Shown: positions 12,337 to 61,510, counted from the first letter of the stretch. The stretch: DNA of 64,000 bases from Thermodesulfobacteriota bacterium (GCA_964291405.2 OZ219926.1:3584001-3648000), one strand, 5' to 3'. A program made the numbers and translations. The notes: generated from the letters alone by a model not told the origin.

Positions 12337-12346
12337 TAGGCAGTTA

Positions 12347-26715: not shown

Positions 26716-28536
26716 CTATGCGTCGGCGACGCGCATGGCTGCCCGAAGGGCTGTGGTGGCCGCTTCGTCAATCGTCCTGGTTGCGATATCCACAACCACA
26801 CCATAGACGCTACGCGCCTTCTCCACAGAGATATACTCGTCCAGCGTATCGTCGAGGACCTCTTGTACGGGACGGTCGAGCGGATTACCCCAACCGCCGC
26901 CGCCGGTGGTTTCAAACCAGAAGGTGTCACCATAGGAGAGCTTGTGACCGCGCAGCAGGGGATTGAGCCAGCGATTGTCCTCGGTCAGACCGCCGACAAT
27001 GTTTTGCGTGCCATCCGCACGGAGGTGCCACAGCCGTTGGGGCGAACTCCGCTGTCCGCCGTTCACGCCTGGGGTGCCCTCGCGCGTACGGGCCGTTTCC
27101 ACGCTCATCGCGCCCTCGCAGAGGAAGCGGATTTTGAGATGGGACCCAACCCCGCCCCGATGGTGGCCGTCCCCGGCCGAGTCTTGCCGAATATCAAAAG
27201 CTTCATAGGCAATCGGGAACATCAGCTCTGCGGTCTCCGCTTCCATATTCATGCAGTTGCCCAGCGGATCCATGGTGACATTCATGCCGTCATTAAACGG
27301 GGTCCCGCCCCAGCCGCCGGCCGGCAGGTCCGAGAAGACATCGGTTTTCCCGTCCGGCTCACGCACGCCACACACAAACCAGTTGCAGTCGCCGCACGCG
27401 GAGCCGACCGCGCGGTCGGGCAGGGCGTTGGCAATCGCCTGCCAGACCGCGCTGGCAACTTTCGGGGCGGCCAGCACCGTACAGCCGATGGTCGGGGCCG
27501 GCCATTTGGGGTTCAGCCAGCAGTCGTCGGGTAAGACCACGCTGATCGGGTTGAACATGCCCTCGTTTTGCGGCGCGCTGGGTTCCAGGAAAAACTGGAG
27601 GGAGTAAAAGACCGCAGAGTGGGTATTGGCCTTGGGCGAGTTGATAGCGCCAAGACACTGGGGGTCGGAGCCGGTCAGGTCTACGGTGATATCCGAGTCT
27701 TTGACCGTCAGGGTCACTTTGACTTTGACAGGATCATCGCTCTGGCCGTCGGTATCGGCATAATCCTCGCCGGTATATACCCCGTCCGGGATACTCTCGA
27801 TTTTCTTGCGGACAATCCGCTCGGTATAGGCAATCAGCTCGGCCATGGCGGCCTTGATCGTCTCCAGACCGTACCGCTCGGCCGCGGACTGCATTTCTTC
27901 TTCTGCGGCTTTAAGACAGCCGACATGGGCCTGGAGGTCACCCTGGATAAAATGCGGGGTGCGCGTATTGGCCAGCAGAATCTTGAGGATTTCCGGCTTG
28001 ACCTCATTGTTTTCAAAGGCTTTGATGGGCGGCAGGCGAAGCCCCTCTTCCGCGATATGCGTGCCCCACGACTGGCCGCCCGGCGCCCCGCCACCAAAGT
28101 CCATCCAATGACCCCGGCTGACCGCAAAGCCCAGCAGCTCCGTGTCTTTGTAAAAAATCGGCTTAATCCAGGAGATGTCGTTAATATGGGTGCCGCCCCG
28201 GTACGGGTCGTTGACCACATAGATGTCGCCGTCCTTCATATTCTCGATGCCGAACTCGTCCCGCACGGCATGGGCCGAAAACTTCATGGCCGCCAGATGG
28301 ACGGGAACATTGGCGGCTTGGCTCAACAGCCGCATCTCCGGGTCATAAATGGCGTTTGAGAAATCAACCATATCGGACAGAATCGGCGAGAACGACGCTC
28401 GTTGGAGCACCGCGGTCATCCGATCGCAGGTATACTCAAACAGATTCCGCAAGACCTCAAAGGTAATATGATCGAGTCCTGTCCGGTTTTTAATGCTGTC
28501 GCCCGTTTTTTCGAGTGCGCTGGATTGCATGACCAT
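26716..28536 (-). CDS. Hydantoinase B/oxoprolinase family subunit
   Basis: SFSPIL..DFS, PVHL, NDPYRGGTHIND, HWMDFGG, TGGGGGWGNP. Confidence 0.92.
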   Translation of the reverse strand: MVMQSSALEKTGDSIKNRTGLDHITFEVLRNLFEYTCDRMTAVLQRASFSPILSDMVDFSNAIYDPEMRLLSQAANVPVHLAAMKFSAHAVRDEFGIENMKDGDIYVVNDPYRGGTHINDISWIKPIFYKDTELLGFAVSRGHWMDFGGGAPGGQSWGTHIAEEGLRLPPIKAFENNEVKPEILKILLANTRTPHFIQGDLQAHVGCLKAAEEEMQSAAERYGLETIKAAMAELIAYTERIVRKKIESIPDGVYTGEDYADTDGQSDDPVKVKVTLTVKDSDITVDLTGSDPQCLGAINSPKANTHSAVFYSLQFFLEPSAPQNEGMFNPISVVLPDDCWLNPKWPAPTIGCTVLAAPKVASAVWQAIANALPDRAVGSACGDCNWFVCGVREPDGKTDVFSDLPAGGWGGTPFNDGMNVTMDPLGNCMNMEAETAELMFPIAYEAFDIRQDSAGDGHHRGGVGSHLKIRFLCEGAMSVETARTREGTPGVNGGQRSSPQRLWHLRADGTQNIVGGLTEDNRWLNPLLRGHKLSYGDTFWFETTGGGGWGNPLDRPVQEVLDDTLDEYISVEKARSVYGVVVDIATRTIDEAATTALRAAMRVADA

Positions 28537-28568
28537 CCTCCTGCAAATGGAACACTGATTCTGCCCGA

Positions 28569-30626
28569 CTATCGTCCTACCTGTATAATAAGATTACCCT
28601 GGGTATCAATAGTTGCCTGCGCGCCGGGCGGCAGCACGGCCACCGAATCCAGATATTCCAGAATCGCCGGTCCCCGAAGCTCTGCGCCGGGCTGGAGAAT
28701 TTGGCCGTTGTAAATCGGACAGTCGATCCATTCTCCAGAGAAATACACCGAGCGAGCGCTTTTCATGGCCACGACATTTTCTGCGGCGACACTTTTATAG
28801 GGAGGCAGGGCTGCGGTTGGCGCTGTCGCTGCGAGACTCAGAGAAACAAACGCCGGGTCGAAGATATCCGAACTGACCCCATGCTCCTGCTTGTGTACGG
28901 CGTGAAAGGTATCGGCAATGGTGACAAGGGCATCCTTGGTGAGCGCGCCGCCCGGAATGGGGGTTTCAATTTCATATGTCTGGCCCACATAGCGCATCTG
29001 GGCGGTGCGGTTGATGAGCACATTTCCCGCTGAGACATTATCGCGAGCGAGCAGAGTACGGGCCGTCCGTTCGAGTTCGGCATACACGCTATTCAGTCGG
29101 TCCAGGTCAACCTCCCCAATCGGGGCGTACATGAATTGCTCGACGTCCTGGCGGACATCCATGACGGTTGCTCCAAAGGCCGAGGCCACCCCGGCGGCCG
29201 CCGGGACGATGACTTTCGGAATATTCATGGCCCGGGCAACAAAGCAGGCGTGCATGGGCCCGGCTCCACCAAAACTGGTCAGCACAAAATCGCGCGGGTC
29301 ACGGCCTCTATTAATAATGACCCTTTTGACGGCCTGGGCCATAATCTCACAGCTGATCTGGATCATGGCGTCCGCGGTCTCGACCGTCGACAGGCCCAGT
29401 TGCTCAGCAACGGTACTCACCGCCTGTTCAGCCGCCTGCCGGTCCAGATTGATTTTTCCCCCCAGGGTCGGCTCCAGACGGCCGAGCAGCAGGTTGGCGT
29501 CCGTGATCGTCGGCTCGGTCCCCCCGTTGCCATAACAGGCCGGTCCTGGTTGCGAACCGGCGCTGCGCGGCCCCACCCGGAGCGAGCCGCCGCCATCCAC
29601 CCAGCCGATCGAGCCACCGCCGGCACCCACGCTGTGGATGTCGAGCATGGGCAGGATGATCGGCAGCTCAAATTCGAGTTCATACTCGCGGGTGACGAGT
29701 CCCTTGCCATCTTCGACTATCGAGGCGTCAAAACTCGTGCCGCCCATGTCCGCGCAAATAATACTGGGCTCGTGTATGGCATCGGCCAGATAGCCGGCAT
29801 AGGCCACCCCACCGGCCGGTCCGGACTCCAGCAGCTCTTCCGGATGTTCCTTGGCCAGATCGACACCCATCACGCCGCCGCTGCTTTTGAGAATCAACAG
29901 GGAGCCGTCAAAGCCTTGTTGGGTGAGGCGTTCCAGCAGATGATCGAAATAGGCTCCCATCACCGGCTTGAGCGCGGCGCTCACCGCAGTGGTGACAAAG
30001 CGACCGTGCTCGCGGAACAGGGGTCGCGTCTCGCCCGACAGCATAATATGCGCGTCAGGAATGTGTTCGAGCAGGATGTCGCGCATCTGCCGCTCATGAT
30101 CGGCGTTGACATAGGAATTGATGAAACACACCGCAATGGAGCGGATTCCCTCCGCCTTGATTGTTTCGGCCACCTGCTGCGCGGCCGCGGTATCGAGTGG
30201 GCGTTCTTCTTTCCCCTTGACGTTAATGCGTTGCGGGACCGTGTAGCGATAGCGACGCCGAATGAGCGGTTTGGGTTTGACCTGATAGGGGTCGTACAGG
30301 TCTTTCCGATGCTGACGGCCGATTTCAATAGTATCGCGAAAGCCCTGGGTGGTGACCAGGGCCGGGGCCGGGTAGGAGCGCTCGATCAGGGCATTGGTTG
30401 CGGTGGTCGTGCCATGGACCAGGCAGGAGATCTGGTCAAACGGAATACCCGATTGCTCGACCGCTTCAAGAGAATCCCGGGCGGCCTTTTTGACGGCCTC
30501 AATGACACCAACGGAGCGGTCCCAGGGGGTGGTCAGAACCTTGGCCGTGACGCGCTCACCGGTCGTTTCCTCCCAGCCAAACAGGTCGGTAAATGTTCCG
30601 CCAACATCGACGCCTACCCGCCACAT
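28569..30626 (-). CDS. Hydantoinase A/oxoprolinase family subunit
   Basis: GVDVGGTFTD, HGTTTATNALIE, SGPAGG, DMGGTSFD, GAGGGS, FGGAGPMH; start MWRVG after AAGGAG. Confidence 0.92.
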   Translation of the reverse strand: MWRVGVDVGGTFTDLFGWEETTGERVTAKVLTTPWDRSVGVIEAVKKAARDSLEAVEQSGIPFDQISCLVHGTTTATNALIERSYPAPALVTTQGFRDTIEIGRQHRKDLYDPYQVKPKPLIRRRYRYTVPQRINVKGKEERPLDTAAAQQVAETIKAEGIRSIAVCFINSYVNADHERQMRDILLEHIPDAHIMLSGETRPLFREHGRFVTTAVSAALKPVMGAYFDHLLERLTQQGFDGSLLILKSSGGVMGVDLAKEHPEELLESGPAGGVAYAGYLADAIHEPSIICADMGGTSFDASIVEDGKGLVTREYELEFELPIILPMLDIHSVGAGGGSIGWVDGGGSLRVGPRSAGSQPGPACYGNGGTEPTITDANLLLGRLEPTLGGKINLDRQAAEQAVSTVAEQLGLSTVETADAMIQISCEIMAQAVKRVIINRGRDPRDFVLTSFGGAGPMHACFVARAMNIPKVIVPAAAGVASAFGATVMDVRQDVEQFMYAPIGEVDLDRLNSVYAELERTARTLLARDNVSAGNVLINRTAQMRYVGQTYEIETPIPGGALTKDALVTIADTFHAVHKQEHGVSSDIFDPAFVSLSLAATAPTAALPPYKSVAAENVVAMKSARSVYFSGEWIDCPIYNGQILQPGAELRGPAILEYLDSVAVLPPGAQATIDTQGNLIIQVGR

Positions 30627-30679
30627 ATGCTGACATACTCCTTTCGGTGATTCCTTCGCCCTTGCTCCGTGCGCCATGG

Positions 30680-33094: not shown

Positions 33095-33856
33095 CTACTG
33101 CGCCACAATCCCACCATCAACGGCCATGGCGTGGCCGGTGACGAACGAGGCCGCGTCGGAGCACAGCCAGACTGCGGTTTCGGCAATTTCTTCCGGCTGA
33201 CCCATACGGCCGATGGGCTCGCCGGCTTCAATCTTCTCGAACATTCTGGGCCGGCGTTCTTTGAGTCGGCCGACCATGGACGTATCAATAATACCCGGAC
33301 AGACGGCATTCACCCGGATACCGGATTTGGCATATTCCAGGGCTGCGGTTTTGGTCAGACCGACCACTCCGTGCTTGCTGGCCACATAGGCCGGCATCCG
33401 CGGCGCCCCAAGCAGCCCGGCGGCTGAGGACGTGTTGACGATAGCCCCGCCGCCGTTTTTGAGCATCTGCGGAATCTCGTACTTCATGCACAGCCATACT
33501 CCGGTCAGATTAATCGCAATCACCGGGGCCCAGTCCGCCTCGGTATAATCCGCGGTTGAGGCCAGTGCACCCTCAATGCCGGCGTTGTTATAGGCGCAGT
33601 CCAGGCGGCCGTAGGTCTCGACCACCGCGCTCACCATGGCCTCGACTTCCGCGGCCTTGGACATATCGGCCTTAATACAAAACGCTTCGCCACCGGCGTC
33701 CTGAATCATCTTCACGGTTTCCTCGGCTCCGGCCACATTGACATCGGCCACTGCGACCTTGGCGCCTTCGCGGGCAAATATCTGGGCCGCGGCCCGCCCG
33801 ATACCCGAGCTGGCCCCGGTGACCAGGGCGACTTTGTCTTGCATCAAATCTGTCAT
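33095..33856 (-). CDS. Short-chain dehydrogenase/reductase (paralog 1)
   Basis: [17 protein letters not shown]. Confidence 0.95.
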   Translation of the reverse strand: MTDLMQDKVALVTGASSGIGRAAAQIFAREGAKVAVADVNVAGAEETVKMIQDAGGEAFCIKADMSKAAEVEAMVSAVVETYGRLDCAYNNAGIEGALASTADYTEADWAPVIAINLTGVWLCMKYEIPQMLKNGGGAIVNTSSAAGLLGAPRMPAYVASKHGVVGLTKTAALEYAKSGIRVNAVCPGIIDTSMVGRLKERRPRMFEKIEAGEPIGRMGQPEEIAETAVWLCSDAASFVTGHAMAVDGGIVAQ

Positions 33857-34532: not shown

Positions 34533-35294
34533 TTATTGCGCAACCATGCCGCCATCGACGGACATGGCGTGACCGGTGATGAACGAGGCCGCGTCCGAGC
34601 ACAGCCATACCACCGATTCGGCGATTTCCTGGGGGATGCCCATGCGACCGACCGGTTCAAAAGAGGCCATCTTTGCGGCCCGGTGGGGACGGTGACCGGT
34701 CAGCCGGCCCATCATGGGCGTATCAATTGCGCCGGGGCAGACGGCATTCACCCGGATGCCGGATTTGGCGTATTCCAGGGCCGCGGTTTTAGTCAGGCCG
34801 AGCACGCCATGCTTGCTGGCCACATAGGCCGAGCCCCGGCGGAAACCGAGCAGTCCGGCGGCTGAAGACGTATTGACGATCGCGCCCCCGCCCTGGGTGA
34901 GCATCGGCGGAACCTCATACTTCATGCACAACCACACGCCAGTCAGATTGATCGCAATCACTTGGTCCCAATCCGCTTCCGTATAGTCGGTTGTCATCAT
35001 CGAGCTGCCCTCAACCCCCGCGTTGTTATGGGCCGCGTCCAGCCGTCCGTAGGTCTCGACCGTCTTGGCAACGAGGGCTTCGACCTGCGCGGCCTGCGAC
35101 ACATCCGCGCTGACAAAGAGCGCCTCACCGCCAGCCTCCCGTATGAGGCGGACCGTCTCTTCCCCACCTTCAATCACAACGTCGGACACCACGACCTTGG
35201 CCCCTTCCCGGGCGAAGGTCAGCGCGGTCGCGCGGCCAATACCCGAACTGGCTCCAGTAACAAGGGCGACTTTGCCCTGCATCAAGTCTGCCAT
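34533..35294 (-). CDS. Short-chain dehydrogenase/reductase (paralog 2)
   Basis: [17 protein letters not shown]; highly similar to 33095-33856. Confidence 0.95.
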
Positions 35295-36877: not shown

Positions 36878-37834
36878 ATGCCGAAATGGAATTATACCAA
36901 AGGGCTCCACGATCTGGGGAATGGCCTGTTTGCCTATCTCCTGCCCGACGGTTCGTGGGGCTGGAGTAACGCCGGGCTGGTGGTGGATGGAGATCAGTCT
37001 CTGCTGGTTGATACGCTCTTTGACCTTGCTCTCACGCGGGAGATGCTGGTTGCCATGCAAGACGCGACCGGTGCGGCACAGTCGATCAACACGCTGGTGA
37101 ATACCCATGCCAACGGTGACCACTGGTTCGGCAATCAACTCGTGCACGGCGCGCAAATCATTGCCTCCAAGGCGTGCGCGCAAGAGATGGAAGAACTCCC
37201 GCCCAGCCGTCTCGCCGATATGATGACAGCCGCTCCCAATATGGGTGAGCTGGGCGAATATCTCACCAGGATTCTCGGCTCATTCCGCTTCGACGATATT
37301 ATCCCCACCCATCCCTCGCGTACGTTTGAGAAACGTCTCGATCTCAAGGTGGGAGACAAAGACGTCCAACTCATTGAGGTCGGCCCTGCCCATACCCTGG
37401 GTGATGTCCTGGTCTATGTGCCCGACGAGCGGACGATTTTCACCGGAGACATTCTTTTTATTGACGGGACGCCACTGATGTGGAACGGCCCGATCGCCAA
37501 CTGGATCAAGGCGTGTGAGCTGATGCTTGCCCTTGACGTTGAAACCGTGGTGCCGGGGCATGGGCCGATCACCGACAAGCGCGGCGTCGAGTCGGTCAGG
37601 GGATATCTGCAATATATTGAAAAGGAAACCCGCGAGCGCTTCGACGCCGGCCTGTCTGCAATCGAGGCGGCCAATGATATCGCGCTGCACGATTACGCCG
37701 CGTGGGGGGATGCCGAGCGCATTGTCGTGAACGTCAACACGCTCTATCGCGAGTTCAGCGGCGAAACCGCGGCCCCGAGTTTTGCCGACCTGTTCGGAGG
37801 CATGGCCACTTGGGCGAAGGGGCGGCAGCATTAG
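36878..37834 (+). CDS. MBL-fold metallo-hydrolase (cyclase-like)
   Basis: THANGDHWFGN, AHT.GD, TGD, VPGHG. Confidence 0.9.
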   Translation: MPKWNYTKGLHDLGNGLFAYLLPDGSWGWSNAGLVVDGDQSLLVDTLFDLALTREMLVAMQDATGAAQSINTLVNTHANGDHWFGNQLVHGAQIIASKACAQEMEELPPSRLADMMTAAPNMGELGEYLTRILGSFRFDDIIPTHPSRTFEKRLDLKVGDKDVQLIEVGPAHTLGDVLVYVPDERTIFTGDILFIDGTPLMWNGPIANWIKACELMLALDVETVVPGHGPITDKRGVESVRGYLQYIEKETRERFDAGLSAIEAANDIALHDYAAWGDAERIVVNVNTLYREFSGETAAPSFADLFGGMATWAKGRQH

Positions 37835-37972
37835 GAGCCCTTTATCAGCGAGGCCAAGACCCTGCGGGCGGCGGCGTCAAGGTCCCCCGTACGAGGGTAG
37901 TGTCTCCCTTTGAAATTGGTACTCCTCTGCGTTCGTCACACTATTCCTTCCTGTCCGAGCGCCTGTGGTAAT

Positions 37973-38072
37973 AGTCGAGTCTCGCTCCCGTCTTGAGAGC
38001 CCCAGGCGGGAGTCAGGGGACGATTTTCCTCCCAAACTGGTAGGGGCAGACGCCAGCAGTTGTGTCTAGATG
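37973..38072 (+). promoter_or_regulatory. Conserved upstream element with hairpin, copy A (before Cache gene 1)
   Basis: Homologous to 40214-40323; stem GCTCCCGTCT/AGGCGGGAGT. Confidence 0.5.
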
Positions 38073-38160
38073 TCCGGGAGCCCTCCTCTCGGCGTCCGTA
38101 CCCTACATGGACCACGCCGGGAGCCCCACTGGCCCTTTCTGCAGGACTGACCGCCGTCAG

Positions 38161-38202
38161 TTCCTTGTAAGATTATGAGGTTTCCTTATAAGATTATGAG
38201 GT
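38161..38202. promoter_or_regulatory. 21-bp tandem direct repeat (putative operator)
   Basis: ttccttGtaagattatgaggt / ttccttAtaagattatgaggt. Confidence 0.55.
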
Positions 38203-38412
38203 CAATGCCTCTGCCCCTGCCTTACTTTAGCTGTAAACGAAGGCTCTCGGATGAGAGGGAAGGGCATACCGAACGCGGAGGAGAAAGAAATTCAAACTGA
38301 GACACTACCGTCGCCAGGGGATTCTTTACATACGAGCCAAACTCATTATATATACGTTCAGACTGTATGCATGTCCAGGATGCATTTCACGTCTGGAAGG
38401 AAGGAGCTTCAC

Positions 38413-40110
38413 ATGGCCGCAGGAATAGACATTCAGTGGGAACGGAAAAACGGGGCTTTGGTTGCCGCGACATCGCTGATTCTTGTGAGCGGCCTGCTCG
38501 TGCTGGCCGGCATCTTTTCCAATGTACGCCCGGCCTTCGCGCAGACGCAAATCGAATGTCCACTGCCCGCCGGCGTGACTCCGCCCGCGGACCCACGTGT
38601 GACGGCGAAACAGGTGGAAGACGGCCGCGCTACCCTGATGGACTTCGCACTGGCCGTGAGAGAGCGGTCCAGAGAGCATTCCCAGCAGGCCACGACCGTG
38701 GAACAAGGTCAATCCACGACCGTGGAACAAGGTCAATATATCGGATGTATCATCAGGCAGGAGGGCAGTCCCTGGCGTTCCGGTTCCACGTACATCGTAA
38801 CCCTGACGACCGACGGCAGGGTGTACATTCACGCCAAGGACATGGCATTGTCGGGCAGGCTGCTCAACCCCTTGATTTACGCAGAGATCCTTTCCGCGCT
38901 GGGCGTCTCCCCAACCGATCTCGCTAACCTGGCTTCTCCCGATCCTGGCACCGCCGGCCCCGCTCTCCAGGCCGTCCTTGCCGCATTGTCGCAAGAACCG
39001 GATGGCGCTTTCGATGCGACTGCCTCTATACCCGGCGCCTCCGGCCATGCCGCCGTCTATGTCTCGTCCGAATTAGGGGCCGCTCCGATCGTGCTGCTCG
39101 CCGGATTCGATCTCAATGAGTCTCATTTGGTCTCCATTGACGATGAAACAATCGATTACGGTGATCCGGCCGTCACCGCCAGGGACGTGGTGGACCGTGA
39201 GACCTTGAAGGCCTTTGTCACGCAAGCGGGGGAGTTCTTTCTTGAAATCATGAGTACCGGCAATGTAGCGGCGGCCTCGAAAGCCCGGATCGCCTTTCGG
39301 GATCCGAACGGGCCGTGGAGACATGGGTCCGTGTACATTGCCGTGTTGCAACCTGCCACCAATCTCATCCTGTTTCACGGAGCGTTTCCGGATCGGTTCG
39401 AGCTTCGACAAGCAGGGATTTCCCGCGACGCCGTGACCGGAGAGCTCATCGTGGATCAGCTCACCGCCGCGGCGAATAGCGGCCCGGAAGGCGGTTTCTG
39501 GGAGTATCACTTCGACGATCCCGCCGACGATAGCGATAGCGCCGACATCCCCAAGGTGGGTTACGCCCGCGTGTTCTCCGGTCAACTCCCGGGGCCGGGC
39601 GGAACCACGATCCCCACCGACTTCATCATCAATTCGGGATTTTATGTGAGCCCAGCGGGCACAGGGGATCTGGTGGGGGTGCTGGAGAATCCGGGGCCGG
39701 ACTCGTTTCAGAGTGGGGTGAGCGCGCTGTGGGGCTGGGTATGCGACGCCGCGATGGTGGAGATCGAGATCGAGACCGCGCAGGGGGAGGTCGAGCCGTA
39801 CAGGGCGATGTATGGCATGGAGCGGTTGGATACGCAGGCTATCTGTGGAGACACGAATAATGGGTTTGTGTTGTTATTCAACTGGAACCGGTTGGGCGCG
39901 GGTGACCACATGGTCACCGCCTTGGTCGACGGGCTCGAACTGGGCCGGGCGATGGTGCGGGTGACGACCGTAGGCGAGGGGGATCAGGAGGAGTTTCTGC
40001 GCGGGGCGATGGGCGAATGTGTGGCGGAGGACTTCCCGCAGCTGGGGCAGAGTGCCTTATTGGAGTGGCAGCAGAATAGCCAAAACTTCGTCATTACGGA
40101 TGTTCAGTAG
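38413..40110 (+). CDS. Secreted Cache-like domain protein with conserved C-terminal module (copy 1)
   Basis: Signal peptide ending AFA; DPNGPWRHGSVY..FHG..GGFWEY.F..P..KVGYAR Cache motif; AAGGAG RBS. Confidence 0.8.
   Translation: MAAGIDIQWERKNGALVAATSLILVSGLLVLAGIFSNVRPAFAQTQIECPLPAGVTPPADPRVTAKQVEDGRATLMDFALAVRERSREHSQQATTVEQGQSTTVEQGQYIGCIIRQEGSPWRSGSTYIVTLTTDGRVYIHAKDMALSGRLLNPLIYAEILSALGVSPTDLANLASPDPGTAGPALQAVLAALSQEPDGAFDATASIPGASGHAAVYVSSELGAAPIVLLAGFDLNESHLVSIDDETIDYGDPAVTARDVVDRETLKAFVTQAGEFFLEIMSTGNVAAASKARIAFRDPNGPWRHGSVYIAVLQPATNLILFHGAFPDRFELRQAGISRDAVTGELIVDQLTAAANSGPEGGFWEYHFDDPADDSDSADIPKVGYARVFSGQLPGPGGTTIPTDFIINSGFYVSPAGTGDLVGVLENPGPDSFQSGVSALWGWVCDAAMVEIEIETAQGEVEPYRAMYGMERLDTQAICGDTNNGFVLLFNWNRLGAGDHMVTALVDGLELGRAMVRVTTVGEGDQEEFLRGAMGECVAEDFPQLGQSALLEWQQNSQNFVITDVQ
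38690..38737. repeat. In-frame 24-bp tandem duplication (TTVEQGQ x2)
   Basis: ccacgaccgtggaacaaggtcaat occurs twice. Confidence 0.9.
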
Positions 40111-40215
40111 GGGCGCCACATGCATTGCCCCTCCTTATTATTCTGAAACAGCGGCCTCGCCTGGTCGGCGCGACTGTGTCCGTTCAAGACCACGGCCGAG
40201 AGCCTGCGGTCACAG
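39620..40215 (+). repeat. 596-bp direct repeat, copy 1 (identical to 41486-42081; 39629-40098 matches 43268-43737 with 1 mismatch)
   Basis: Direct comparison by eye; offsets 1866 and 3639. Confidence 0.92.
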
Positions 40216-40323
40216 TCGAGACTCGTTCCTGTCTTGAGAACCCAGGGCGGGAGCAAGATAGGAGCAGTGACGATTTTCCTCACCAATTAGTAGTGACAAC
40301 CAGCCGACAATTATGTATAGATG
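40214..40323 (+). promoter_or_regulatory. Conserved upstream element with hairpin, copy B (before Cache gene 2)
   Basis: Stem GTTCCTGTCTT/AGGGCGGGAGC with loop GAGAACCC; shares gacgattttcctc with copy A. Confidence 0.5.
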
Positions 40324-40383
40324 CCGAACGGCCCTTCGTGCCCGTGGGAGTGTCACGTACGGGAGCCGAGAGAGGACCTGAAG

Positions 40384-41976
40384 ATGCAAACTGGAACCTT
40401 GCCTACCCCGATATCGCTGATTCTTGCGAGCGGCCTGCTCGTGCTGGCCGGTGTCTTTTCCGATGCACGCCCGGCCTTTGCGCAGGCGCAACTCGAATGT
40501 CCACTGCCCGCCGGCTTGACTCCGCCTGCGCCTCCACCTGTGACGGCGCAACAGGTGGAAGACGGCAGCGCTACCCTGATGGACTTCGCGCTGGCCGTAA
40601 GAGATCAGTTTGGCCATGGAACAACAACGACGCCGCAACGGACGTTATATGTTGGATGTCTTATCAGACAGGAGGGGAGTGTTTACCGTTCCGGCTCCAC
40701 CTACCTTATCCAACTGAGGCGCGACGGCAGGGTGTTCGTTCACGCGAAGGACATGTCATTGTCGGGCCGGCAACTCAGACCCGTAATTTATGGAGCGATC
40801 CTTCAGGCATTGGGAATCGACCCGGCCGTCCGGACCGACCCTGCTGCGGCCCTGGCCGCCTTCACTGATGCCACCACCGGGGATGGCGGCTCGTTCGACG
40901 TACCCGGTATCCCCGGCGCTTCCGGCCATGCCGCCGTCTATGTCTCGGCCAAATTCGGGAGTCCGGTCGTGCTCCTCGCGGGATTCGATCTCAATGAATC
41001 TCACCTGATTGAAGAAGAAATCGTTCACCTCGACCCGGCCGTTACGGCCAGGGATGTCGTGGACCGAGAAACCTTGAAGGCCTTCGTCACGCAAGCAGGG
41101 GAGTACATTCTCGCACTCGCACAGGAGCAGAATGGCGATATTTTGAAAGCAAAGAACGCCCTGCGGGATCCGAACGGGCCCTGGAGACACGGGCCCGTGT
41201 ACCTCAGCATCTTGAATCCTGCCACCAATCTCATCCTGTTTCACGGCGGGTTTCCGGACCGGCTCGAGCTGCGACGCGGAGGGATTTCCCGCGACATCGC
41301 GACCGGAGAACTCGTCGTGGATCAGCTCATCCGCGCGGCGGAAAGTGGCCCGGAAGGCGGCTTCTGGGAATATTACTTCGACAACCCCGCCGACGATGCC
41401 GACAGCGCCGACGTCCCCAAGGTGGGTTACGCCCGCGTGTTCTCCGGTTCATTCCGGAGAAGAGACGGAACCGAATTCCCAATTAACTTCATCATCAATT
41501 CGGGATTTTATGTGAGCCCAGCGGGCACAGGGGATCTGGTGGGGGTGCTGGAGAATCCGGGGCCGGACTCGTTTCAGAGTGGGGTGAGCGCGCTGTGGGG
41601 CTGGGTATGCGACGCCGCGATGGTGGAGATCGAGATCGAGACCGCGCAGGGGGAGGTCGAGCCGTACAGGGCGATGTATGGCATGGAGCGGTTGGATACG
41701 CAGGCTATCTGTGGAGACACGAATAATGGGTTTGTGTTGTTATTCAACTGGAACCGGTTGGGCGCGGGTGACCACATGGTCACCGCCTTGGTCGACGGGC
41801 TCGAACTGGGCCGGGCGATGGTGCGGGTGACGACCGTAGGCGAGGGGGATCAGGAGGAGTTTCTGCGCGGGGCGATGGGCGAATGTGTGGCGGAGGACTT
41901 CCCGCAGCTGGGGCAGAGTGCCTTATTGGAGTGGCAGCAGAATAGCCAAAACTTCGTCATTACGGATGTTCAGTAG
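40384..41976 (+). CDS. Secreted Cache-like domain protein with conserved C-terminal module (copy 2)
   Basis: MQTGTLPTPISLILASGLLVLAG...AFA; same architecture as copy 1. Confidence 0.8.
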   Translation: MQTGTLPTPISLILASGLLVLAGVFSDARPAFAQAQLECPLPAGLTPPAPPPVTAQQVEDGSATLMDFALAVRDQFGHGTTTTPQRTLYVGCLIRQEGSVYRSGSTYLIQLRRDGRVFVHAKDMSLSGRQLRPVIYGAILQALGIDPAVRTDPAAALAAFTDATTGDGGSFDVPGIPGASGHAAVYVSAKFGSPVVLLAGFDLNESHLIEEEIVHLDPAVTARDVVDRETLKAFVTQAGEYILALAQEQNGDILKAKNALRDPNGPWRHGPVYLSILNPATNLILFHGGFPDRLELRRGGISRDIATGELVVDQLIRAAESGPEGGFWEYYFDNPADDADSADVPKVGYARVFSGSFRRRDGTEFPINFIINSGFYVSPAGTGDLVGVLENPGPDSFQSGVSALWGWVCDAAMVEIEIETAQGEVEPYRAMYGMERLDTQAICGDTNNGFVLLFNWNRLGAGDHMVTALVDGLELGRAMVRVTTVGEGDQEEFLRGAMGECVAEDFPQLGQSALLEWQQNSQNFVITDVQ

Positions 41977-42081
41977 GGGCGCCACATGCATTGCCCCTCC
42001 TTATTATTCTGAAACAGCGGCCTCGCCTGGTCGGCGCGACTGTGTCCGTTCAAGACCACGGCCGAGAGCCTGCGGTCACAG
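41486..42081 (+). repeat. 596-bp direct repeat, copy 2
   Basis: Identical to 39620-40215. Confidence 0.92.
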
Positions 42082-42144
42082 ATGCCGAACGGCCATTCGC
42101 GCCCGTGTGAGTGTCACGTACGGGAGCCGAGAGAGGACCCGAAG

Positions 42145-43749
42145 ATGCAAACTGGAACCTTGCCTACCCCGATATCGCTGATTCTTGCGAGCGGCCTGCT
42201 CGTGCTGGCCGGCGTCTTTTCCGATGCACGCCCGGCCTTTGCGCAGGCGCAACTCGAATGTCCACTGCCTGCCGGGGTGACTCCGCCTGCGCCTCCACCT
42301 GTGACGGCGCAACAGGTGGAAGACGGCAGCGGCAGCCTGATGGACTTCGCACTGGCCGTGAGAGACATCTTTGTGAACGAGTCGCAGCAGGGCATTCCGA
42401 CCCTCAAGCAGTTAGCCTACGTTGGATGTCTTTTCAGGCAGGAGGGGGGTCCGTGGCGTTCCGGTTCCACCTACGTCGTGAGACTGGCGCCCAGCGACAG
42501 GGTGTTCATTCACGCGAAGGACATGGCATTGTCCGGCAGGCAAATCAACCCCGTGATTTATGAAGCGATCCTGCACGCATTGGGAATTGATCCGGCCGAC
42601 CTGACCAGCCCGGCGGCGGCCAGGACCGCCTTCGCTGCTGCCGCCACCAGGAATGGCGGTGAATTCAACGTCCCTGATATCCCGGGTGCCTCCGGCTATG
42701 CCATCGGCTTTCTCTCGGGCATCTCGGGGACACCTGTCGTGATGCTTGTCGGATTTGATCTTGACTCGTCTCACTTGTCCGCAGAGGAAATTGAGCATAT
42801 CGAACCGGCCGTTACGGCCAGGGATGTGGTGGATCGGGCAACCTTGAAGGCCTTCGTCACGGCAGCGGGGGAATACTTCGTCGGACTCCTTTCGTCCGGC
42901 GATCTGACCGCGGTCTCGCAAGCCAGGTTCATCCTGCGTGATCCGAACGGACCGTGGAGACATGGGTCCGTCTACGTCGCCATCATGGAACGTGTCAGCA
43001 GGATCATCACGCTTCACGGAGGGTTCCCGGATCGGTTCGAGTTTCGACGCGGAGGGATTGCCACCGACATCGCGACCGGAGAACTCGTCGTGGAGCAGCT
43101 CATCCGCGCGGCGGAAAGTGGCCCGGACGGCGGCTTCTGGGAGTATTACTTCGACAATCCCGCCGACGATGCCGACAGCGCCGACGTCCCCAAGGTGGGT
43201 TACGCCCGCGTGTTCACCGCTCACATCCCGAGGCCGGACGGCAGCATCATCTCGATCGACTACATCGTCAATTCGGGATTTTATGTGAGCCCAGCGGGCA
43301 CAGGGGATCTGGTGGGGGTGCTGGAGAATCCGGGGCCGGACTCGTTTCAGAGTGGGGTGAGCGCGCTGTGGGGCTGGGTATGCGACGCCGCGATGGTGGA
43401 GATCGAGATCGAGACCGCGCAGGGGGAGGTCGAGCCGTACAGGGCGATGTATGGCATGGAGCGGTTGGATACGCAGGATATCTGTGGAGACACGAATAAT
43501 GGGTTTGTGTTGTTATTCAACTGGAACCGGTTGGGCGCGGGTGACCACATGGTCACCGCCTTGGTCGACGGGCTCGAACTGGGCCGGGCGATGGTGCGGG
43601 TGACGACCGTAGGCGAGGGGGATCAGGAGGAGTTTCTGCGCGGGGCGATGGGCGAATGTGTGGCGGAGGACTTCCCGCAGCTGGGGCAGAGTGCCTTATT
43701 GGAGTGGCAGCAGAATAGCCAAAACTTCGTCATTACGAACGTGGAGTGA
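42145..43749 (+). CDS. Secreted Cache-like domain protein with conserved C-terminal module (copy 3)
   Basis: Same architecture; leader nearly identical to copy 2. Confidence 0.8.
   Translation: MQTGTLPTPISLILASGLLVLAGVFSDARPAFAQAQLECPLPAGVTPPAPPPVTAQQVEDGSGSLMDFALAVRDIFVNESQQGIPTLKQLAYVGCLFRQEGGPWRSGSTYVVRLAPSDRVFIHAKDMALSGRQINPVIYEAILHALGIDPADLTSPAAARTAFAAAATRNGGEFNVPDIPGASGYAIGFLSGISGTPVVMLVGFDLDSSHLSAEEIEHIEPAVTARDVVDRATLKAFVTAAGEYFVGLLSSGDLTAVSQARFILRDPNGPWRHGSVYVAIMERVSRIITLHGGFPDRFEFRRGGIATDIATGELVVEQLIRAAESGPDGGFWEYYFDNPADDADSADVPKVGYARVFTAHIPRPDGSIISIDYIVNSGFYVSPAGTGDLVGVLENPGPDSFQSGVSALWGWVCDAAMVEIEIETAQGEVEPYRAMYGMERLDTQDICGDTNNGFVLLFNWNRLGAGDHMVTALVDGLELGRAMVRVTTVGEGDQEEFLRGAMGECVAEDFPQLGQSALLEWQQNSQNFVITNVE
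43268..43737 (+). repeat. 470-bp constant module, copy 3
   Basis: One mismatch to 39629-40098 (QAI to QDI). Confidence 0.9.
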
Positions 43750-43854
43750 GTGAACAGCGGGGCTTTTTGCGGGCACGAAGCCCACCCACTCCCAGACAGG
43801 AGGCTGATAGTTCCACCGATCCGCCGAGAGCCAAAACCTGTCAGTTTCCCAGGG

Positions 43855-44613
43855 TTACGCCGCGACCGCTCCGCCATCCACGGCCATGGCGTGGCCGGTG
43901 ACAAACGAGGCTGCGTCCGAGCACAACCACACCACGGCCTCGGCGATTTCTTCCGGCTGCCCGGTACGACCAATGGGTTCCGCGGCAATCATTTTATCGA
44001 GGACATCCGGTCGGTTGCCTGAGACTCGATCAACCATGGCTGTCTTGATAACCCCTGGACAGACCGCGTTGATCCGAATACCGGATTTGGCGTATTCAAG
44101 CGCCGCGGTTTTCGTCAGCCCAACCACACCGTGCTTGCTGGCCACATAGGCAGCCATGCGCTTCACGCCGATGAGGCCCGCACCGGAGGCCGTGTTGACA
44201 ATGGCTCCAACCCCTTGCTGGAGCATGTGCGGGATCTCATACTTCATGCACAGCCAGACACCGGTCAGATTAATCTGAATGACCGGGGCCCAGTCCTCTT
44301 CGGCCTGCTCGGCCGTCCTTTTGAGTACACCCTCGATGCCGGCGTTATTATGGGCGTAGTCGAGCCTGCCGTAGGTCTCGACGGTTTTTTCGACCATGGC
44401 CGCTACGGAGGCGGCCTCGCCCATATCGGCCTCAATGAAACACGCTCCCCCACCGGCCCCTGCGATGAGGGATACCGTTTCTTGTCCGCCGACGATATTG
44501 AGATCGGCAACCGCGACTTTGGCGCCGTCACGGGCGAAGGCCAGGGCGGTTGCCCGGCCAATGCCCGAACTACCTCCGGTAACGAGGGCGACTTTACCTG
44601 TCATATCTGTCAT
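43855..44613 (-). CDS. Short-chain dehydrogenase/reductase (paralog 3)
   Basis: TGGSSGIG, NNAG, YVASK; similar to paralogs 1 and 2. Confidence 0.95.
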   Translation of the reverse strand: MTDMTGKVALVTGGSSGIGRATALAFARDGAKVAVADLNIVGGQETVSLIAGAGGGACFIEADMGEAASVAAMVEKTVETYGRLDYAHNNAGIEGVLKRTAEQAEEDWAPVIQINLTGVWLCMKYEIPHMLQQGVGAIVNTASGAGLIGVKRMAAYVASKHGVVGLTKTAALEYAKSGIRINAVCPGVIKTAMVDRVSGNRPDVLDKMIAAEPIGRTGQPEEIAEAVVWLCSDAASFVTGHAMAVDGGAVAA

Positions 44614-58542: not shown

Positions 58543-58597
58543 AGGAAGAAGGGAGAAGGAAAAAGGATGAAGTTGTGGACCTTCGGATTCGGACGAA
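58444..58597 (+). repeat. hsdR 3' end plus purine-rich leader, copy A (diverged direct repeat of 59773-59939)
   Basis: PFDGKGG.GQM.KLFGDRMDDVIDELN plus MKEEGRRKK leader occur twice. Confidence 0.92.
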
Positions 58598-58946
58598 GGA
58601 GTTTGCACTGCGGATCATTCGCCTTTACTCAGGTCTTCCCAAGCGGACCGAGGCTCAAGTAATAGGCGGGCAAATTATTCGTTCTGGAACGTCTGTAGGA
58701 GCAAATTACCGGGAGGCATATCGCGCGCGGAGCAAAGCGGAGTTCATCGCAAAGGCTGGCGACTGTTTGAAGGAGATTGAGGAAACCGGTTATTGGCTTG
58801 AGCTGCTTGTCGATTCAGGAATTGTTTCCGAGGATCGACTTGAGAACTTGAGAAACGAATGTGGTGAATTAACTGCGATATTCGTCACTTCCATTCGGAA
58901 TGCGAAGAGCAATGAAGAAAGGCAAAAGGGAGAAGGAAAAAAGTAG
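58539..58946 (+). CDS. Four-helix-bundle protein (23S rRNA IVP / bAvd-like)
   Basis: RT..FALRII.L...LP, QIIRSGTSVGANYREA.RARS..EF..K, E.EET.YWLELL. Confidence 0.92.
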   Translation: MKEEGRRKKDEVVDLRIRTKEFALRIIRLYSGLPKRTEAQVIGGQIIRSGTSVGANYREAYRARSKAEFIAKAGDCLKEIEETGYWLELLVDSGIVSEDRLENLRNECGELTAIFVTSIRNAKSNEERQKGEGKK

Positions 58947-58960
58947 AAGGAGAAAGGATC

Positions 58961-59028
58961 ATACGGGCGCCAGACTGCGCGTTGATTTTGACCGGCATTT
59001 CTTCCTTCTGCCTTCCTCCTTCTTCCTT
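58961..59028 (+). repeat. Diverged copy of an internal hsdS segment (60296-60362)
   Basis: cgcgttgattttgacc..atttcttccttctgccttcctcctt.ttcctt is shared, with one indel. Confidence 0.9.
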
Positions 59029-59062
59029 AGATCGCATAGAGACAGGTGGCCGGTCTCAGTGC

Positions 59063-59404
59063 TCACGGAGTTGCAGCTTGGGCGTCCCCCGTCTCTCTTC
59101 CCTCCGTGCCGAGCGCCTGCACGACCGAATCCGGATCGTGGTCTATCACGGTCAGCAGTACACGGGCGGCCCGGTCTGGAACCCGGCGGCCCTGTTCCCA
59201 GTCCTGCACGGCACGTACATCAAGGCCAAAACGGTCGGCGAATTTCTGCCGGCTCAGCTTCAGACGTTTGCGAAGCGCGACGATCCGCCCAGCGCTGGGG
59301 TCGTCCACGATCCGGCAGGAAAGTGCTGTCTCACCGCGCACATGGGCAAGCACCTCGCCCAGGGCTGTTTCAATCTCTTGGCCGATGTTGGTGCGTTCCT
59401 TCAT
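59063..59404 (-). CDS. HigA-like XRE-HTH antitoxin
   Basis: LRKRLKLSRQKFA..FGL....QDWEQGRR.PD..AR.LL. Confidence 0.85.
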   Translation of the reverse strand: MKERTNIGQEIETALGEVLAHVRGETALSCRIVDDPSAGRIVALRKRLKLSRQKFADRFGLDVRAVQDWEQGRRVPDRAARVLLTVIDHDPDSVVQALGTEGRETGDAQAATP

Positions 59405-59730: not shown

Positions 59731-59737
59731 TGGCTCT

Positions 59738-59764
59738 CAATTATGCGGCAATGCCGCATAATTG
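59738..59764. promoter_or_regulatory. Perfect inverted repeat, putative TA operator
   Basis: CAATTATGCGGCA-A-TGCCGCATAATTG just upstream of the toxin ATG. Confidence 0.7.
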
Positions 59765-59772
59765 GCAAGATG

Positions 59773-61488: not shown

Positions 61489-61510
61489 CGCGGCACCCCT
61501 CCAGGGAGGG
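61471..61510 (-). repeat. REP-like element, inverted partner of 55669-55708
   Basis: aacccaccccg...cgcggcacccctcc...ggg. Confidence 0.7.

Follow-up and report, generated by a model that had tools for sequence, protein, structure and literature searches.

Three co-oriented genes of a Candidatus Binatia genome encode proteins with strongly diverged Cache-type heads and nearly identical C-terminal tails. The heads are old paralogues in one chromosomal slot; gene conversion has recently overwritten the tails together with 105 nt downstream of them, as well as the leaders in copies 2 and 3. The genes lie in a window (the whole stretch of DNA analysed here) of 64,000 nucleotides. The explanation we favour, with a rough probability of 0.55 for the whole of it, is that the heads would capture small carboxylate-bearing molecules outside the cytoplasm without signalling; that the tail would hold its passenger at the Binatia cell surface in place of a barrel, a type IX secretion system (T9SS) domain or a lipobox, by non-covalent anchoring in the manner of SLH repeats; and that the heads are old paralogues placed in one slot, their ends overwritten recently.

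The starts of the three genes were chosen as the in-frame ATGs that fit the homologues (Table 1). All three products share one build, a putative Sec-type signal peptide followed by a Pro-rich linker, two Cache_2-type modules, presumably PAS-like, and a tail of 144 a.a., which is the arrangement described in an earlier, sequence-only reading of this DNA. The signal peptide and its A-x-A cleavage site before Q were called by eye and by hydrophobicity scan: each protein has one N-terminal hydrophobic segment, then A-F-A and Q, and this region is kept in relatives, so that an extracytoplasmic location is predicted. No second hydrophobic segment at the level of the signal peptide was found by the scan in any of the three proteins; copy 3 has a single borderline 19-a.a. 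window at residue 187 (Kyte-Doolittle 1.74), which belongs to a conserved stretch of the family consensus (..VLLAGFDL..) and which we read as a beta-strand. The Pfam search of the three proteins gave no HAMP, kinase, MCP or other domain, only sub-threshold dCache_2 matches. Also not found in them are a lipobox (their signal peptides have no Cys), the autotransporter barrel PF03797 and the heme motif CXXCH, and neither these proteins nor the tail has any NCBIfam match, the T9SS domain (TIGR04183/PF18962) included. As far as can be judged from sequence, the proteins are thus exported and have no signalling output, in agreement with the sequence-only reading.

Table 1. Positions of the genes, protein modules and identity tracts in the window
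Feature	Position	Strand	Details or basis
Copy 1 gene	38413..40110	+	head subfamily A, 565 aa; head 93% nt identity to L011, syntenic slot
Copy 1 signal peptide	38413..38541	+	aa 1-43, A-F-A then Q; hydrophobicity scan and motif reading
Copy 1 N-terminal Cache-like module	38599..39165	+	
Copy 1 tandem duplication	38690..38737	+	24 bp, in frame (8 aa)
Copy 1 C-terminal Cache_2-type module	39166..39645	+	
Copy 1 conversion tract	39620..40215	+	596 bp identical to 41486-42081 (copy 2)
Copy 1 tail	39676..40107	+	144 aa, three conserved Cys
Copy 2 5' leader tract	40319..40604	+	upstream region, signal peptide, linker; sequence comparison
Copy 2 gene	40384..41976	+	head subfamily B, 530 aa; head 93% nt identity to L001
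Copy 2 signal peptide	40384..40482	+	aa 1-33; hydrophobicity scan and motif reading
Copy 2 N-terminal Cache-like module	40540..41034	+	aa 53-217; hhalign vs C-terminal module
Copy 2 C-terminal Cache_2-type module	41035..41511	+	aa 218-376; profile match to 4k08_A
Copy 2 tail	41542..41973	+	
Copy 3 gene	42145..43749	+	head subfamily C, 534 aa; head 95.5% nt identity to L005
Copy 3 signal peptide	42145..42243	+	aa 1-33; hydrophobicity scan and motif reading
Copy 3 N-terminal Cache-like module	42301..42804	+	
Copy 3 C-terminal Cache_2-type module	42805..43284	+	
Copy 3 conversion tract	43268..43737	+	470 nt, one mismatch (43478) to copies 1 and 2
Copy 3 tail	43315..43746	+	

The two modules of the head are homologous, as had been supposed (hhalign probability 92.4%, E 5e-7 over 125 columns, N-terminal against C-terminal). 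A profile of 35 C-terminal modules matches the PDB chain 4k08_A with E 2e-5 (profile positions 33-181, chain residues 12-145), spanning the whole domain, and by this profile similarity the C-terminal module is of the Cache_2 type. The window proteins themselves stay under the Pfam dCache_2 cut-off of 26.5 bits (10.5, 16.3 and 11.1 bits); among related heads, three heads at L031 (61.8 bits) and L064 (27.0 bits) exceed it and others score 19-26 bits, and the relatives L052 and L067 have extra modules that can be aligned with those of the window and reach 95-112 bits against sCache_2/dCache_2. The 4K08 report (PMC3831638) names Tyr94, His107, Tyr147 and Lys160 among the contacts of the bound acetate, and the equivalent residues are Tyr, His, Tyr and Lys in all 35 C-terminal modules (Y273, H287, Y330 and K346 in copy 2), which further backs the Cache assignment; in the hhalign alignment the N-terminal module keeps the first Tyr and the His, not the second Tyr and the Lys. 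One pocket-lining position varies, with Ser or Ala in the window and Tyr in most relatives (at the position of 4K08 Trp96 the 35 modules have Tyr in 20, Phe in five, Ala in four, Ile in three, and Ser, Gly and Val in one each). Because the Tyr/His/Tyr/Lys set is kept while one pocket position varies, we infer that the heads putatively bind small carboxylate-bearing molecules outside the cytoplasm, and the ligand probably differs for each head subfamily.

Among the closest known proteins are the sCache_2/dCache_2 sensors (PF17200, PF08269; e.g. the sensor domain of chemoreceptor Adeh_3718, PDB 4K08), with which the window proteins share the profile match, the invariant pocket residues and a predicted extracytoplasmic location. 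They differ from these in having no transmembrane helix, kinase, MCP or GGDEF domain, in carrying two modules in tandem, in scoring under the family cut-offs, and in having Ser/Ala and Phe in place of the two Trp that sandwich the acetate in 4K08. According to a preprint (bioRxiv 10.64898/2026.02.01.703092), over 90% of Cache domains come fused to a signalling module, and stand-alone ones are highly unusual. The stand-alone sCache_heme/DUF3365/Tll0287 proteins are likewise exported with no fused output module; unlike them, the window proteins have no CXXCH motif, and have two modules, a modular tail and, in other phyla, surface-targeting partners.

The distribution of differences between the three copies is far from even. 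The 596-bp tract shared by copies 1 and 2 begins within the Cache module, in its last conserved strand, and comprises 491 nt to the end of the stop codon and the 105 nt beyond, while copy 3 diverges 11 nt ahead of its own stop; the lengths of the two tracts and the single mismatch had been given exactly in the sequence-only reading. By comparison, the heads are 74-78% identical in DNA and about 56-66% in protein, the strong divergence that had been reported for them. In 10000 permutations of the differences of each pair over their alignment, no identical stretch exceeded 72-73 nt, against observed runs of 596 and 259 nt, which none of the shuffles reached. A 100-nt sliding comparison makes the mosaic visible directly, also at the 5' end: the leader of copy 2 is 95% identical to that of copy 3 (42080-42365) and 72% to that of copy 1, and leader types are mixed across head clades.

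Trees of the two parts conflict. The three tails of the window group together (SH-aLRT 99), as do the three of contig CBDEWE010000003.1 (99); the heads, in contrast, pair by orthologue. In AU tests, whose clades were chosen with the trees already known, a single clade of the three window heads is rejected (p 0.00011), and so is a grouping of the copy 3 tail with the tail of its head orthologue (p 4e-39). Synonymous divergence (dS) from the orthologues is 0.08-0.17 for heads and 0.34-0.49 for tails; among the window paralogues it is 0.40-0.49 for heads and 0-0.02 for tails. The heads of close relatives are 99.4% and 98.8% identical to those of copies 2 and 3, but their tails are identical at only 135 of 144 positions. 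The earlier suggestion that gene conversion homogenised the tails is thus upheld by the tree conflict, the AU tests, dS and the sliding comparison, and the tails evolve in concert by gene conversion also in a genome from an independent assembly. That gene conversion makes part of a multigene family evolve in concert is a general phenomenon, and this case resembles the textbook examples in its sharp-bordered identity tracts, which include synonymous and non-coding sites, and in that one segment clusters by genome while the remainder of the gene follows orthology; it differs in that conversion affects only the leader and the tail, the end modules of a gene with three modules, and in acting also between dispersed copies.

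Identity of this degree could in principle be produced by assembly or polishing, the real copies differing as they do in related genomes. The window most likely comes from a metagenome-assembled genome, and paralogue tails within nine other genomes are 76-95.5% identical, so that the perfect identity in the window is unusual. Yet the copies keep differences of their own (the one mismatch, and the last 11 nt and stop codon of copy 3), the tract borders are sharp and lie within conserved sequence, and the 596-bp repeat recurs at 1.9 kb spacing inside one contiguous 64-kb stretch. Moreover, tails group by genome in the independently assembled sister genome too, where the genes are megabases apart. 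We consider such an artefact the least probable of the alternatives weighed here.

The heads were not generated as variants within the array, as had been thought, but belong to three old subfamilies, the orthologues of which are dispersed in the sister genome at 65 kb, 198 kb and 2.49 Mb. In related genomes the syntenic slot holds one to three genes with differing head types. The orthologue of the copy 2 head, L001, sits elsewhere in the sister genome.

The same head is found in at least eight other phyla (at least nine in all; phylum labels are those given by the MAG submitters), where its partner is the barrel of a type Va autotransporter, the sorting domain of T9SS type A cargo or a lipobox. 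The Autotransporter family PF03797 is over its cut-off in nine out of 18 relatives scanned (FlgD_ig in six out of 18); TIGR04183 is over its cut-off in eight out of 20 proteins scanned, these being all eight that have an extension of ∼210-224 a.a. or of 524 a.a.; and a lipobox-like Cys is found in all extension-less heads of Chloroflexota (10 out of 10) and Spirochaetota (two out of two). Of 33 Binatia heads, 32 carry the tail; the exception, L068, has an autotransporter extension. The head has moved among phyla, each lineage fitting its own surface-targeting device. Three Gemmatimonadota heads (L063, L065 and L067) and one from Latescibacterota (L054) have neither extension nor lipobox; untethered forms of the head thus occur. 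Papers describe Binatota and the other phyla concerned as typical sponge symbionts; the records of the window and its relatives themselves carry no habitat.

The autotransporter and T9SS fusions in other phyla mark the head as a passenger destined for the cell surface, and they suggest a surface localisation of the heads. One could instead see the window proteins as ligand binders of the periplasm that dock, like solute-binding proteins, on a receptor or transporter in the membrane: their cleavage site is of the signal-peptidase I type, they have no barrel, and stand-alone Cache proteins are known from the above preprint. We regard this as very improbable, given that the autotransporter and T9SS forms put the same head beyond the outer membrane, and that no receptor, kinase or transporter gene recurs beside the head in 24 loci (23 non-Binatia loci and the tail-less Binatia locus L068, with 94 flanking ORFs in all) or in the window.

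The tail could be assigned to no named domain: no match was found in NCBIfam, 47 tail sequences gave only chance matches to Pfam at E<=10, no curated Pfam or NCBIfam model of a module known for surface anchoring or binding (such as SLH, LysM or carbohydrate-binding modules) was matched, and the tail profile hit only OspA in the PDB, with E>=0.16. Comparison with the T9SS-type and autotransporter extensions gave hhalign probabilities of 0.1% and 0.4%. That the tail is another Cache module was ruled out (hhalign probability 10%).

A search for the tail on unrelated passengers, which had been proposed earlier, found it in 2193 protein cluster representatives (E<=1e-3) with many types of exported passengers. 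Recognised domains are present in 27 out of 40 scanned proteins (LRR in seven, cadherin-type in six, SRCR in four and fn3 in nine, besides CARDB, and as enzymes S8 and reprolysin-type peptidases and FGE-sulfatase), and none of the 40 has a known anchor domain. The tail has no match in 39 non-Binatia loci, and Binatia loci hold 13 tail ORFs that are not Cache proteins. The description of the tail as C-terminal holds for 124 out of 149 top-scoring proteins, in which it ends <=12 a.a. from the C-terminus; in the remaining 25, however, it is N-terminal (17 proteins, directly after the signal peptide) or internal (eight proteins), and in 144 out of 149 it is a tandem pair.

Since the tail in Binatia occupies the place of the surface-targeting devices of other phyla, we infer, by an argument from position only, that it may be a surface-anchoring module keeping its passenger at the cell surface. 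A second reading of this position, that the tail serves a dedicated Binatia secretion or sorting system as its recognition signal and is removed or modified after export, would fit its standing where the same head elsewhere has the T9SS type A sorting domain, its closeness to the C-terminus in most proteins and its many unrelated cargo types. We consider it quite improbable, in view of the N-terminal, internal and doubled tails, a length about twice that of the T9SS model (72 positions) and flanks, in the 24 loci named above, with no conserved sorting-enzyme neighbour. Compared with autotransporters and T9SS type A cargo (PF03797, TIGR04183), the modules of which are fused to the same head elsewhere, the window proteins have neither module; like the T9SS domain the tail tags many unrelated cargo proteins, yet it has no profile similarity to these extensions, is usually doubled and is sometimes N-terminal.

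SLH domains are repeated modules for non-covalent anchoring at the cell surface. The tail shares with them a tandem modular arrangement, placement at either end and many unrelated exported passengers within one lineage; its doubling and its presence at either protein end would therefore favour SLH-like non-covalent anchoring over a cleaved secretion signal. It has no sequence similarity to SLH domains (no Pfam match), and we do not claim membership.

An adhesion or lectin-like module, binding host or matrix rather than the bacterium's own surface, would fit the three conserved Cys, the tandem pairs and the occurrence at either terminus, as in binding modules, and the passengers are mostly adhesion-type and eukaryote-like. 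Other phyla, however, tie the same head to the producer's own envelope, enzymes carry the tail as well, and the tail matches no lectin or carbohydrate-binding family of Pfam; we think this reading unlikely, if deserving of attention, and prefer the tail as a surface anchor.

A wider version of the anchor explanation, put forward tentatively and with less confidence, is that the tail may be an undescribed anchor that defines the surface proteome of sponge-type Binatia and co-evolves with an envelope partner, which would explain why tail copies are kept alike within a genome, and that the heads may be horizontally traded, niche-specific, non-signalling carboxylate binders of the surface, refitted in each phylum. 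If so, the tail would tag thousands of adhesin-like and enzymatic passengers, each recipient phylum would refit the tandem-Cache head with its own export device, and the heads would be Cache proteins displayed on the surface that bind ligands there without signalling.

A minor feature sets copy 1 apart from its orthologue L011, which does not have it: the tandem duplication listed in Table 1, which falls where the first Cache-like module is variable in sequence.

The relatives of the array genes (copies 1–3) combine one conserved head, which has two putative Cache_2-type modules, with surface devices that differ among phyla. We found at least 1496 whole-protein relatives in a word-indexed database (7999 candidates were scored), the best 120 of which are 59–97% identical. 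A one-genome-per-species search gave 314 stretches encoding a relative; 72 loci were kept (handles starting with L), 33 of them from Candidatus Binatia MAGs. In the non-Binatia loci the head alone matches (query residues about 1–380, 51–66% identity). These come from Gemmatimonadota, Caldilineaceae, Latescibacterota, Alpha- and Gammaproteobacteria, Nitrospirales, Spirochaetia, Vicinamibacteria and Terriglobia, and several of the records are chromosome-scale.

All ORFs in the loci were searched with head and tail HMMs and the protein ends were tabulated: architecture tracks phylum. Among the 33 full-length Binatia heads, 32 have the 144-aa C-terminal tail, and only L068 differs, with an extension of ∼469 aa; no tail was found in the 39 non-Binatia loci. 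Pseudomonadota carry a ∼466–472-aa extension on 11 out of 12 heads, and extensions of 470–500 aa or more are found on one Nitrospirota, three Acidobacteriota and some Gemmatimonadota heads. A shorter extension is found in Latescibacterota (216–224 aa, 12 out of 14 heads) and on two Gemmatimonadota heads (209 aa). The Chloroflexota (10/10) and Spirochaetota (2/2) heads have no extension and show a lipobox-like Cys after the hydrophobic core (in Spirochaetota, a canonical L-A-G-C). Among 18 relatives searched against Pfam, the autotransporter beta-domain is above cut-off in nine and FlgD_ig is found in six; TIGR04183 (T9SS type A sorting domain) is above cut-off in eight out of 20 scanned proteins (31–43 bits versus 23), and these are all eight with the shorter extension type in that set. 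The barrel, the T9SS domain and the lipobox, attached to the same head in different lineages, suggest that the head is a passenger sent to the surface by each lineage's own route, and that the tail in Binatia occupies the place taken elsewhere by the barrel, the T9SS domain or the lipid anchor. The tail would accordingly be a surface-holding module, the sole basis being the position of other phyla's devices on the same head. Such lineage-specific swapping of anchors on a conserved passenger offers a general comparative route to new anchoring or sorting domains.

Heads are also multiplied. Three Gemmatimonadota loci (L031–L033) encode two or three complete two-Cache heads per polypeptide; the L031 protein, the one scanned, ends in an autotransporter barrel, and the other two share its 675-aa extension. 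Tandem arrays of three to six head genes are found in Latescibacterota (L047, L050 and L062). In one Gemmatimonadota MAG (L067), four tandem genes with Cache_2-like modules adjoin the head gene; the only one of their proteins scanned has two sCache_2 modules (Pfam, 94–95 bits) and a T9SS type A sorting domain, and therefore exported Cache proteins appear to be a wider class in these genomes. A frame break or a stop interrupts five members of the family, which are pseudogenes or else reflect sequencing errors.

Cache domains are known almost solely as input parts of membrane receptors. Export of the three window proteins, proposed in the sequence-only reading, appears largely right: each N-terminus has a single hydrophobic segment that ends in A-F-A and is followed by Gln. 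Next come the Pro-rich linker with a conserved Cys, the two repeats and the tail, with five Cys per protein (two in the head and three in the tail). Pfam gives solely sub-threshold dCache_2 matches for the window proteins (10.5–16.3 bits versus a cut-off of 26.5), an NCBIfam scan of them gave no match, and a whole-protein profile had no match in PDB at E ≤ 10. The two repeats are mutually homologous (hhalign probability 92.4%, E 5e-7, 125 columns). A profile of 35 C-terminal modules from several phyla, including modules of relatives that score 95–112 bits on sCache_2/dCache_2, matches the whole domain of 4k08_A, a solved sCache_2 sensor domain with bound acetate, at E 2e-5. According to the part of PMC3831638 that describes this structure, acetate is contacted by Tyr94, Trp96, His107, Tyr147, Trp149 and Lys160. 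In our alignment, the equivalents of Tyr94, His107, Tyr147 and Lys160 are Y, H, Y and K in all 35 C-terminal modules; the Trp149 position is mostly Phe, and the Trp96 position is variable (Y20 F5 A4 I3 S1 G1 V1), being Ala, Ser and Ala in copies 1, 2 and 3. The first module retains just the first Tyr and the His of this set, as read from the repeat–repeat hhalign alignment. Given the repeat homology, the 4k08_A match and the Y/H/Y/K set, the Cache assignment of the heads, as earlier proposed, holds at the sequence level and was largely right; since the Y/H/Y/K set is kept as in acetate-bound 4k08_A, the second module can reasonably be inferred to bind a carboxylate-type ligand. We file the heads as Cache_2-type domains in what appears to be an unusual, non-signalling surface-cargo setting.

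A tree of 93 heads mixes the phyla: the starred branches require the Binatota label to change at least five times, and all ten Caldilineaceae heads sit in a single clade surrounded by Binatia heads (SH-aLRT 96–100). The signal peptide and linker are conserved even across phyla, and the flanking genes are unrelated between phyla. No neighbour common to the loci (receptor, transporter or sorting enzyme) was found among 94 flanking ORFs in 24 loci; a few of these ORFs are integrases or a transposase. A tblastn search with head and tail gave no match on 72,556 plasmids or 50,697 phage records. One lipoprotein-form head (L061, a Spirochaetia MAG) lies between hydantoinase A and hydantoinase B genes, and genes for hydantoinase B and A also lie in the window, 8 kb 5' of the array, which may be a coincidence.

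Here the putative Cache fold serves as cargo for three surface-export routes and for a fourth module that has no name, and at least nine phyla have exchanged it. This points to ligand capture or recognition at the cell surface, a function of value in one shared habitat. These phyla are the ones described as typical of sponge microbiomes in passages of PMC9999580 and PMC8163846: the former documents Binatota as sponge symbionts, and the latter describes lateral transfer, between sponge symbionts, of genes for attachment and of eukaryote-like genes and gives, for typical sponge MAGs, the same phylum set as that of the head-bearing ones. The word 'cache' has 0 occurrences in PMC8163846; a passage of PMC7848895 reports Cache domains as enriched in sponge archaea. 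A sponge link of the head-bearing records, which carry no habitat, is plausible. In a literature search that covered articles without their supplements, we found no published description of the head family or the tail, and no report of a Cache domain as an autotransporter passenger. The finding is of high interest for symbiont biology. Host recognition, feeding on the host and hiding from it by sponge symbionts are an open question.

The tail belongs to a large family nameless in Pfam and NCBIfam: among 1.84 billion cluster representatives (clusters at 50% identity), 2193 match at E ≤ 1e-3, 1803 at E ≤ 1e-10 and 603 at E ≤ 1e-30. It had no match in Pfam, NCBIfam or PDB sequences (the nearest PDB sequence, OspA, at E 0.16, was judged chance). 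By hhalign, the probability is just 10% against the Cache module, and the tail is thus no third Cache module; the values are 0.1% against the T9SS-type extension and 0.4% against the autotransporter extension (the T9 set included one autotransporter form, L064, and its score against the autotransporter set is meaningless). The tail had been proposed to be promiscuous, which is largely right: among 40 proteins scanned out of 150 tail-bearing proteins listed, 27 have known domains and 13 have none, the passengers including LRR (seven), cadherin-type (six), SRCR (four), fn3 (nine), CARDB (three), peptidases (three) and FGE-sulfatase (two). Precomputed Pfam lists for 120 longer tail-bearing proteins give the same picture. 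None of the 40 has its tail region covered by a Pfam family, or has an autotransporter, T9SS or SLH domain. Thirteen more tail-bearing ORFs without a head were found in the flanks of Binatia loci. Two Binatia MAGs give examples: in L017, a pair of Cache genes precedes two further genes that bear tails (91.6% identical to each other), and in L014 both ORFs that flank a Cache gene (2239 and 2533 aa) have a tail pair.

Two tandem tail copies are found in 144 of the 149 top-scoring tail proteins, a ranking that favours multi-copy forms. In this sample the last copy is ≤12 aa from the C-terminus in 124 proteins, and the pair is right after the signal peptide in 17 and internal in eight. Within a pair, the first copy can be told from the second as a separate subtype, and tails that occur singly on Cache proteins score slightly closer to the terminal subtype (21/21). 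The doubling and the occasional N-terminal position favour a binding anchor over a cleaved signal; we treat the tail as an unnamed domain family with a probable anchor function. A sizeable share of the Binatia exported proteome would gain an annotation once the family is named and its partner found.

DNA comparison bore out the three-gene array and the identity figures of the sequence-only reading, with the same coordinates and mismatch count (see the table). Copy 3 departs from the tract shared by copies 1 and 2 11 nt 5' of its own stop codon, which is TGA and not TAG. When the differences of each pair were shuffled along the alignment (10000 shuffles), the longest identical run was 72–73 nt, versus 596 and 259 nt observed. 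Identity among the heads is 74–78% for DNA and about 56–66% for protein. Promoter- or terminator-like sites in 37800–44000 show no excess over shuffles, with none between the array genes; the Rfam search gave no match, no tRNA was found, and the shared 105-nt 3' flank folds no better than shuffles (z −1.31). Reverse transcriptase and recombinase domains, expected of a local diversifying element, are absent from the 47 window ORFs scanned.

Coordinates of the features in the window and in homologous loci, with the occupants of the slot (the chromosomal site of the array) in related genomes
Sequence	Feature	Coordinates	Strand	Remark
Window	Copy 1 ORF	38413-40110	+	ATG to end of stop; start agrees with homologues
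Window	Copy 2 ORF	40384-41976	+	ATG to end of stop; start agrees with homologues
Window	Copy 3 ORF	42145-43749	+	ATG to end of stop; start agrees with homologues
Window	Tract, copies 1/2	39620-40215, 41486-42081		No difference; 491 nt to stop-codon end plus 105 nt past stop
Window	Tract, copy 3	43268-43737		470 nt, single mismatch at 43478
Window	Shorter 5' tract, copies 2/3	40319-40604, 42080-42365		95%
Window	SDR paralogues	33095-33856, 34533-35294, 43855-44613	−	70-75% nt identity
Window	Stretch missing from L011	37896-38290		∼395 nt
Window	21-bp tandem repeat	38161-38202		5' of copy 1
Window	Imperfect 89-nt inverted repeat	37876-37964, 38241-38329		
Window	Hydantoinase B and A genes	26716-30677		
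Window	81-bp tandem duplication	2244-2406		2.0 copies, 100% match
Window	Acyl-CoA-dehydrogenase-like gene	1039-2334	−	
Window	Type I restriction-modification locus	55777-64000		
Window	∼590-bp units	58444-59036, 59773-60368		
Window	Three 30-nt direct repeats	62802-62958		Spacing 63-64 nt; 5' of hsdM
L011, L034, L015	Slot occupant			One copy-1-type gene
L029, L004	Slot occupant			One copy-2-type gene
L030	Slot occupant			One gene, fourth type
L003	Slot occupants			Two genes
L031	Multi-head polypeptide	7584-13340		
L032	Multi-head polypeptide	7905-13337		
L033	Multi-head polypeptide	7830-12194		
L067	Four tandem genes	1584-6691		Scanned protein: 1584-3293
L061	Hydantoinase and head genes	3023-12345		
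L017	Cache and other tail-bearing genes	7914-17595		
L014	Cache gene and flanking ORFs	929-17581		
L003	Split member	7773-9602		
L016	Split member	7935-9878		
L021	Split member	6318-8915		
L047	Split members	7860-9773, 12389-14370		

The heads of copies 1–3 belong to three deep subfamilies in the head tree. Their nearest relatives (L011, L001 and L005; 93–95.5% nt identity in the head) are scattered over a single sister-MAG contig, at 198 kb, 65 kb and 2.49 Mb, respectively. The suggestion that head diversity arose in the array has to be corrected on these grounds. The tail tree unites the three tails of the window (SH-aLRT 99) and, in a separate clade, the three of the sister genome (99). For groups chosen after seeing the trees, AU tests reject a clade of the three window heads with the head data (p-AU 0.00011) and, with the tail data, a grouping of the copy-3 tail and that of its head orthologue (p-AU 4e-39). 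Recent tandem duplication with later divergence of the heads is ruled out by the head tree and the AU test. Between the window genes and their orthologues, dS is 0.08–0.17 for heads and 0.34–0.49 for tails, whereas between the window paralogues it is 0.40–0.49 for heads and 0–0.02 for tails (omega 0.23–0.58 for heads, 0.13–0.19 for tails). The tail-tree clades, the AU tests and this dS contrast indicate that the earlier proposal of gene conversion of the tail was largely right.

Other assemblies have heads 99.4% and 98.8% identical to those of copies 2 and 3, with tails sharing just 135 of 144 residues. In a 100-nt sliding comparison the core is orthologous, and the leader (5' upstream segment, signal peptide and linker) and tail are genome-specific; the three leader types are mixed among head clades. 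Dispersed paralogues in the sister genome are 92–99% alike over the first 300 nt of the tail. Elsewhere, tails of same-genome paralogues are 76–95.5% identical (41 pairs, mean 0.847), the between-genome tail mean being 0.809 and the head average 0.746. The genome-specific ends around an orthologous core, with leader types mixed, suggest that the gene is a mosaic of three modules, of which the two at the ends recombine. It is a clean natural example of concerted evolution limited to segments of a gene.

The window flanks at 29–37.9 kb and 43.8–51.6 kb are 84–96% identical to the seven loci whose slot occupants are listed in the table, and a metallo-beta-lactamase-fold gene and an SDR gene border the slot. 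On the outside of the array, the sequences 5' of copy 1 and 3' of copy 3 belong to the slot itself; ∼88 nt of the post-stop segment that is shared are also found behind family members at other places, and a decayed upstream element of the copy-2 type is found 5' of copy 1. The varied occupants, the slot's own outer flanks and the recurring flank elements thus argue for assembly of the array from old paralogues, and not for recent duplication.

The array is bracketed by three minus-strand short-chain dehydrogenase (SDR) paralogues that are also present in syntenic loci of related Binatia. The stretch 5' of copy 1 that is missing from the syntenic locus L011 includes a 21-bp tandem repeat and is spanned by the imperfect inverted repeat; its first part is a decayed version of the upstream element that precedes copy 2 as well as genes in L012 and L013. 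Positions 1–55000 are rich in catabolic enzymes (four luciferase-like monooxygenases, two amidases, two Rieske ring-hydroxylating oxygenases, two aldo-keto reductases, several amidohydrolases and an HpaB-type hydroxylase); none of them forms an obvious operon with the array. The exact 81-bp tandem duplication overlaps the 5' end and the upstream region of the acyl-CoA-dehydrogenase-like gene. In the restriction-modification locus, which also has three 30-nt direct repeats, a ∼590-bp unit is found twice, once after hsdR and once before an hsdS-like gene; the ends of the two units are shared (82–97% identical), their middles differ, and each has purine-rich and pyrimidine-rich inverted arms.
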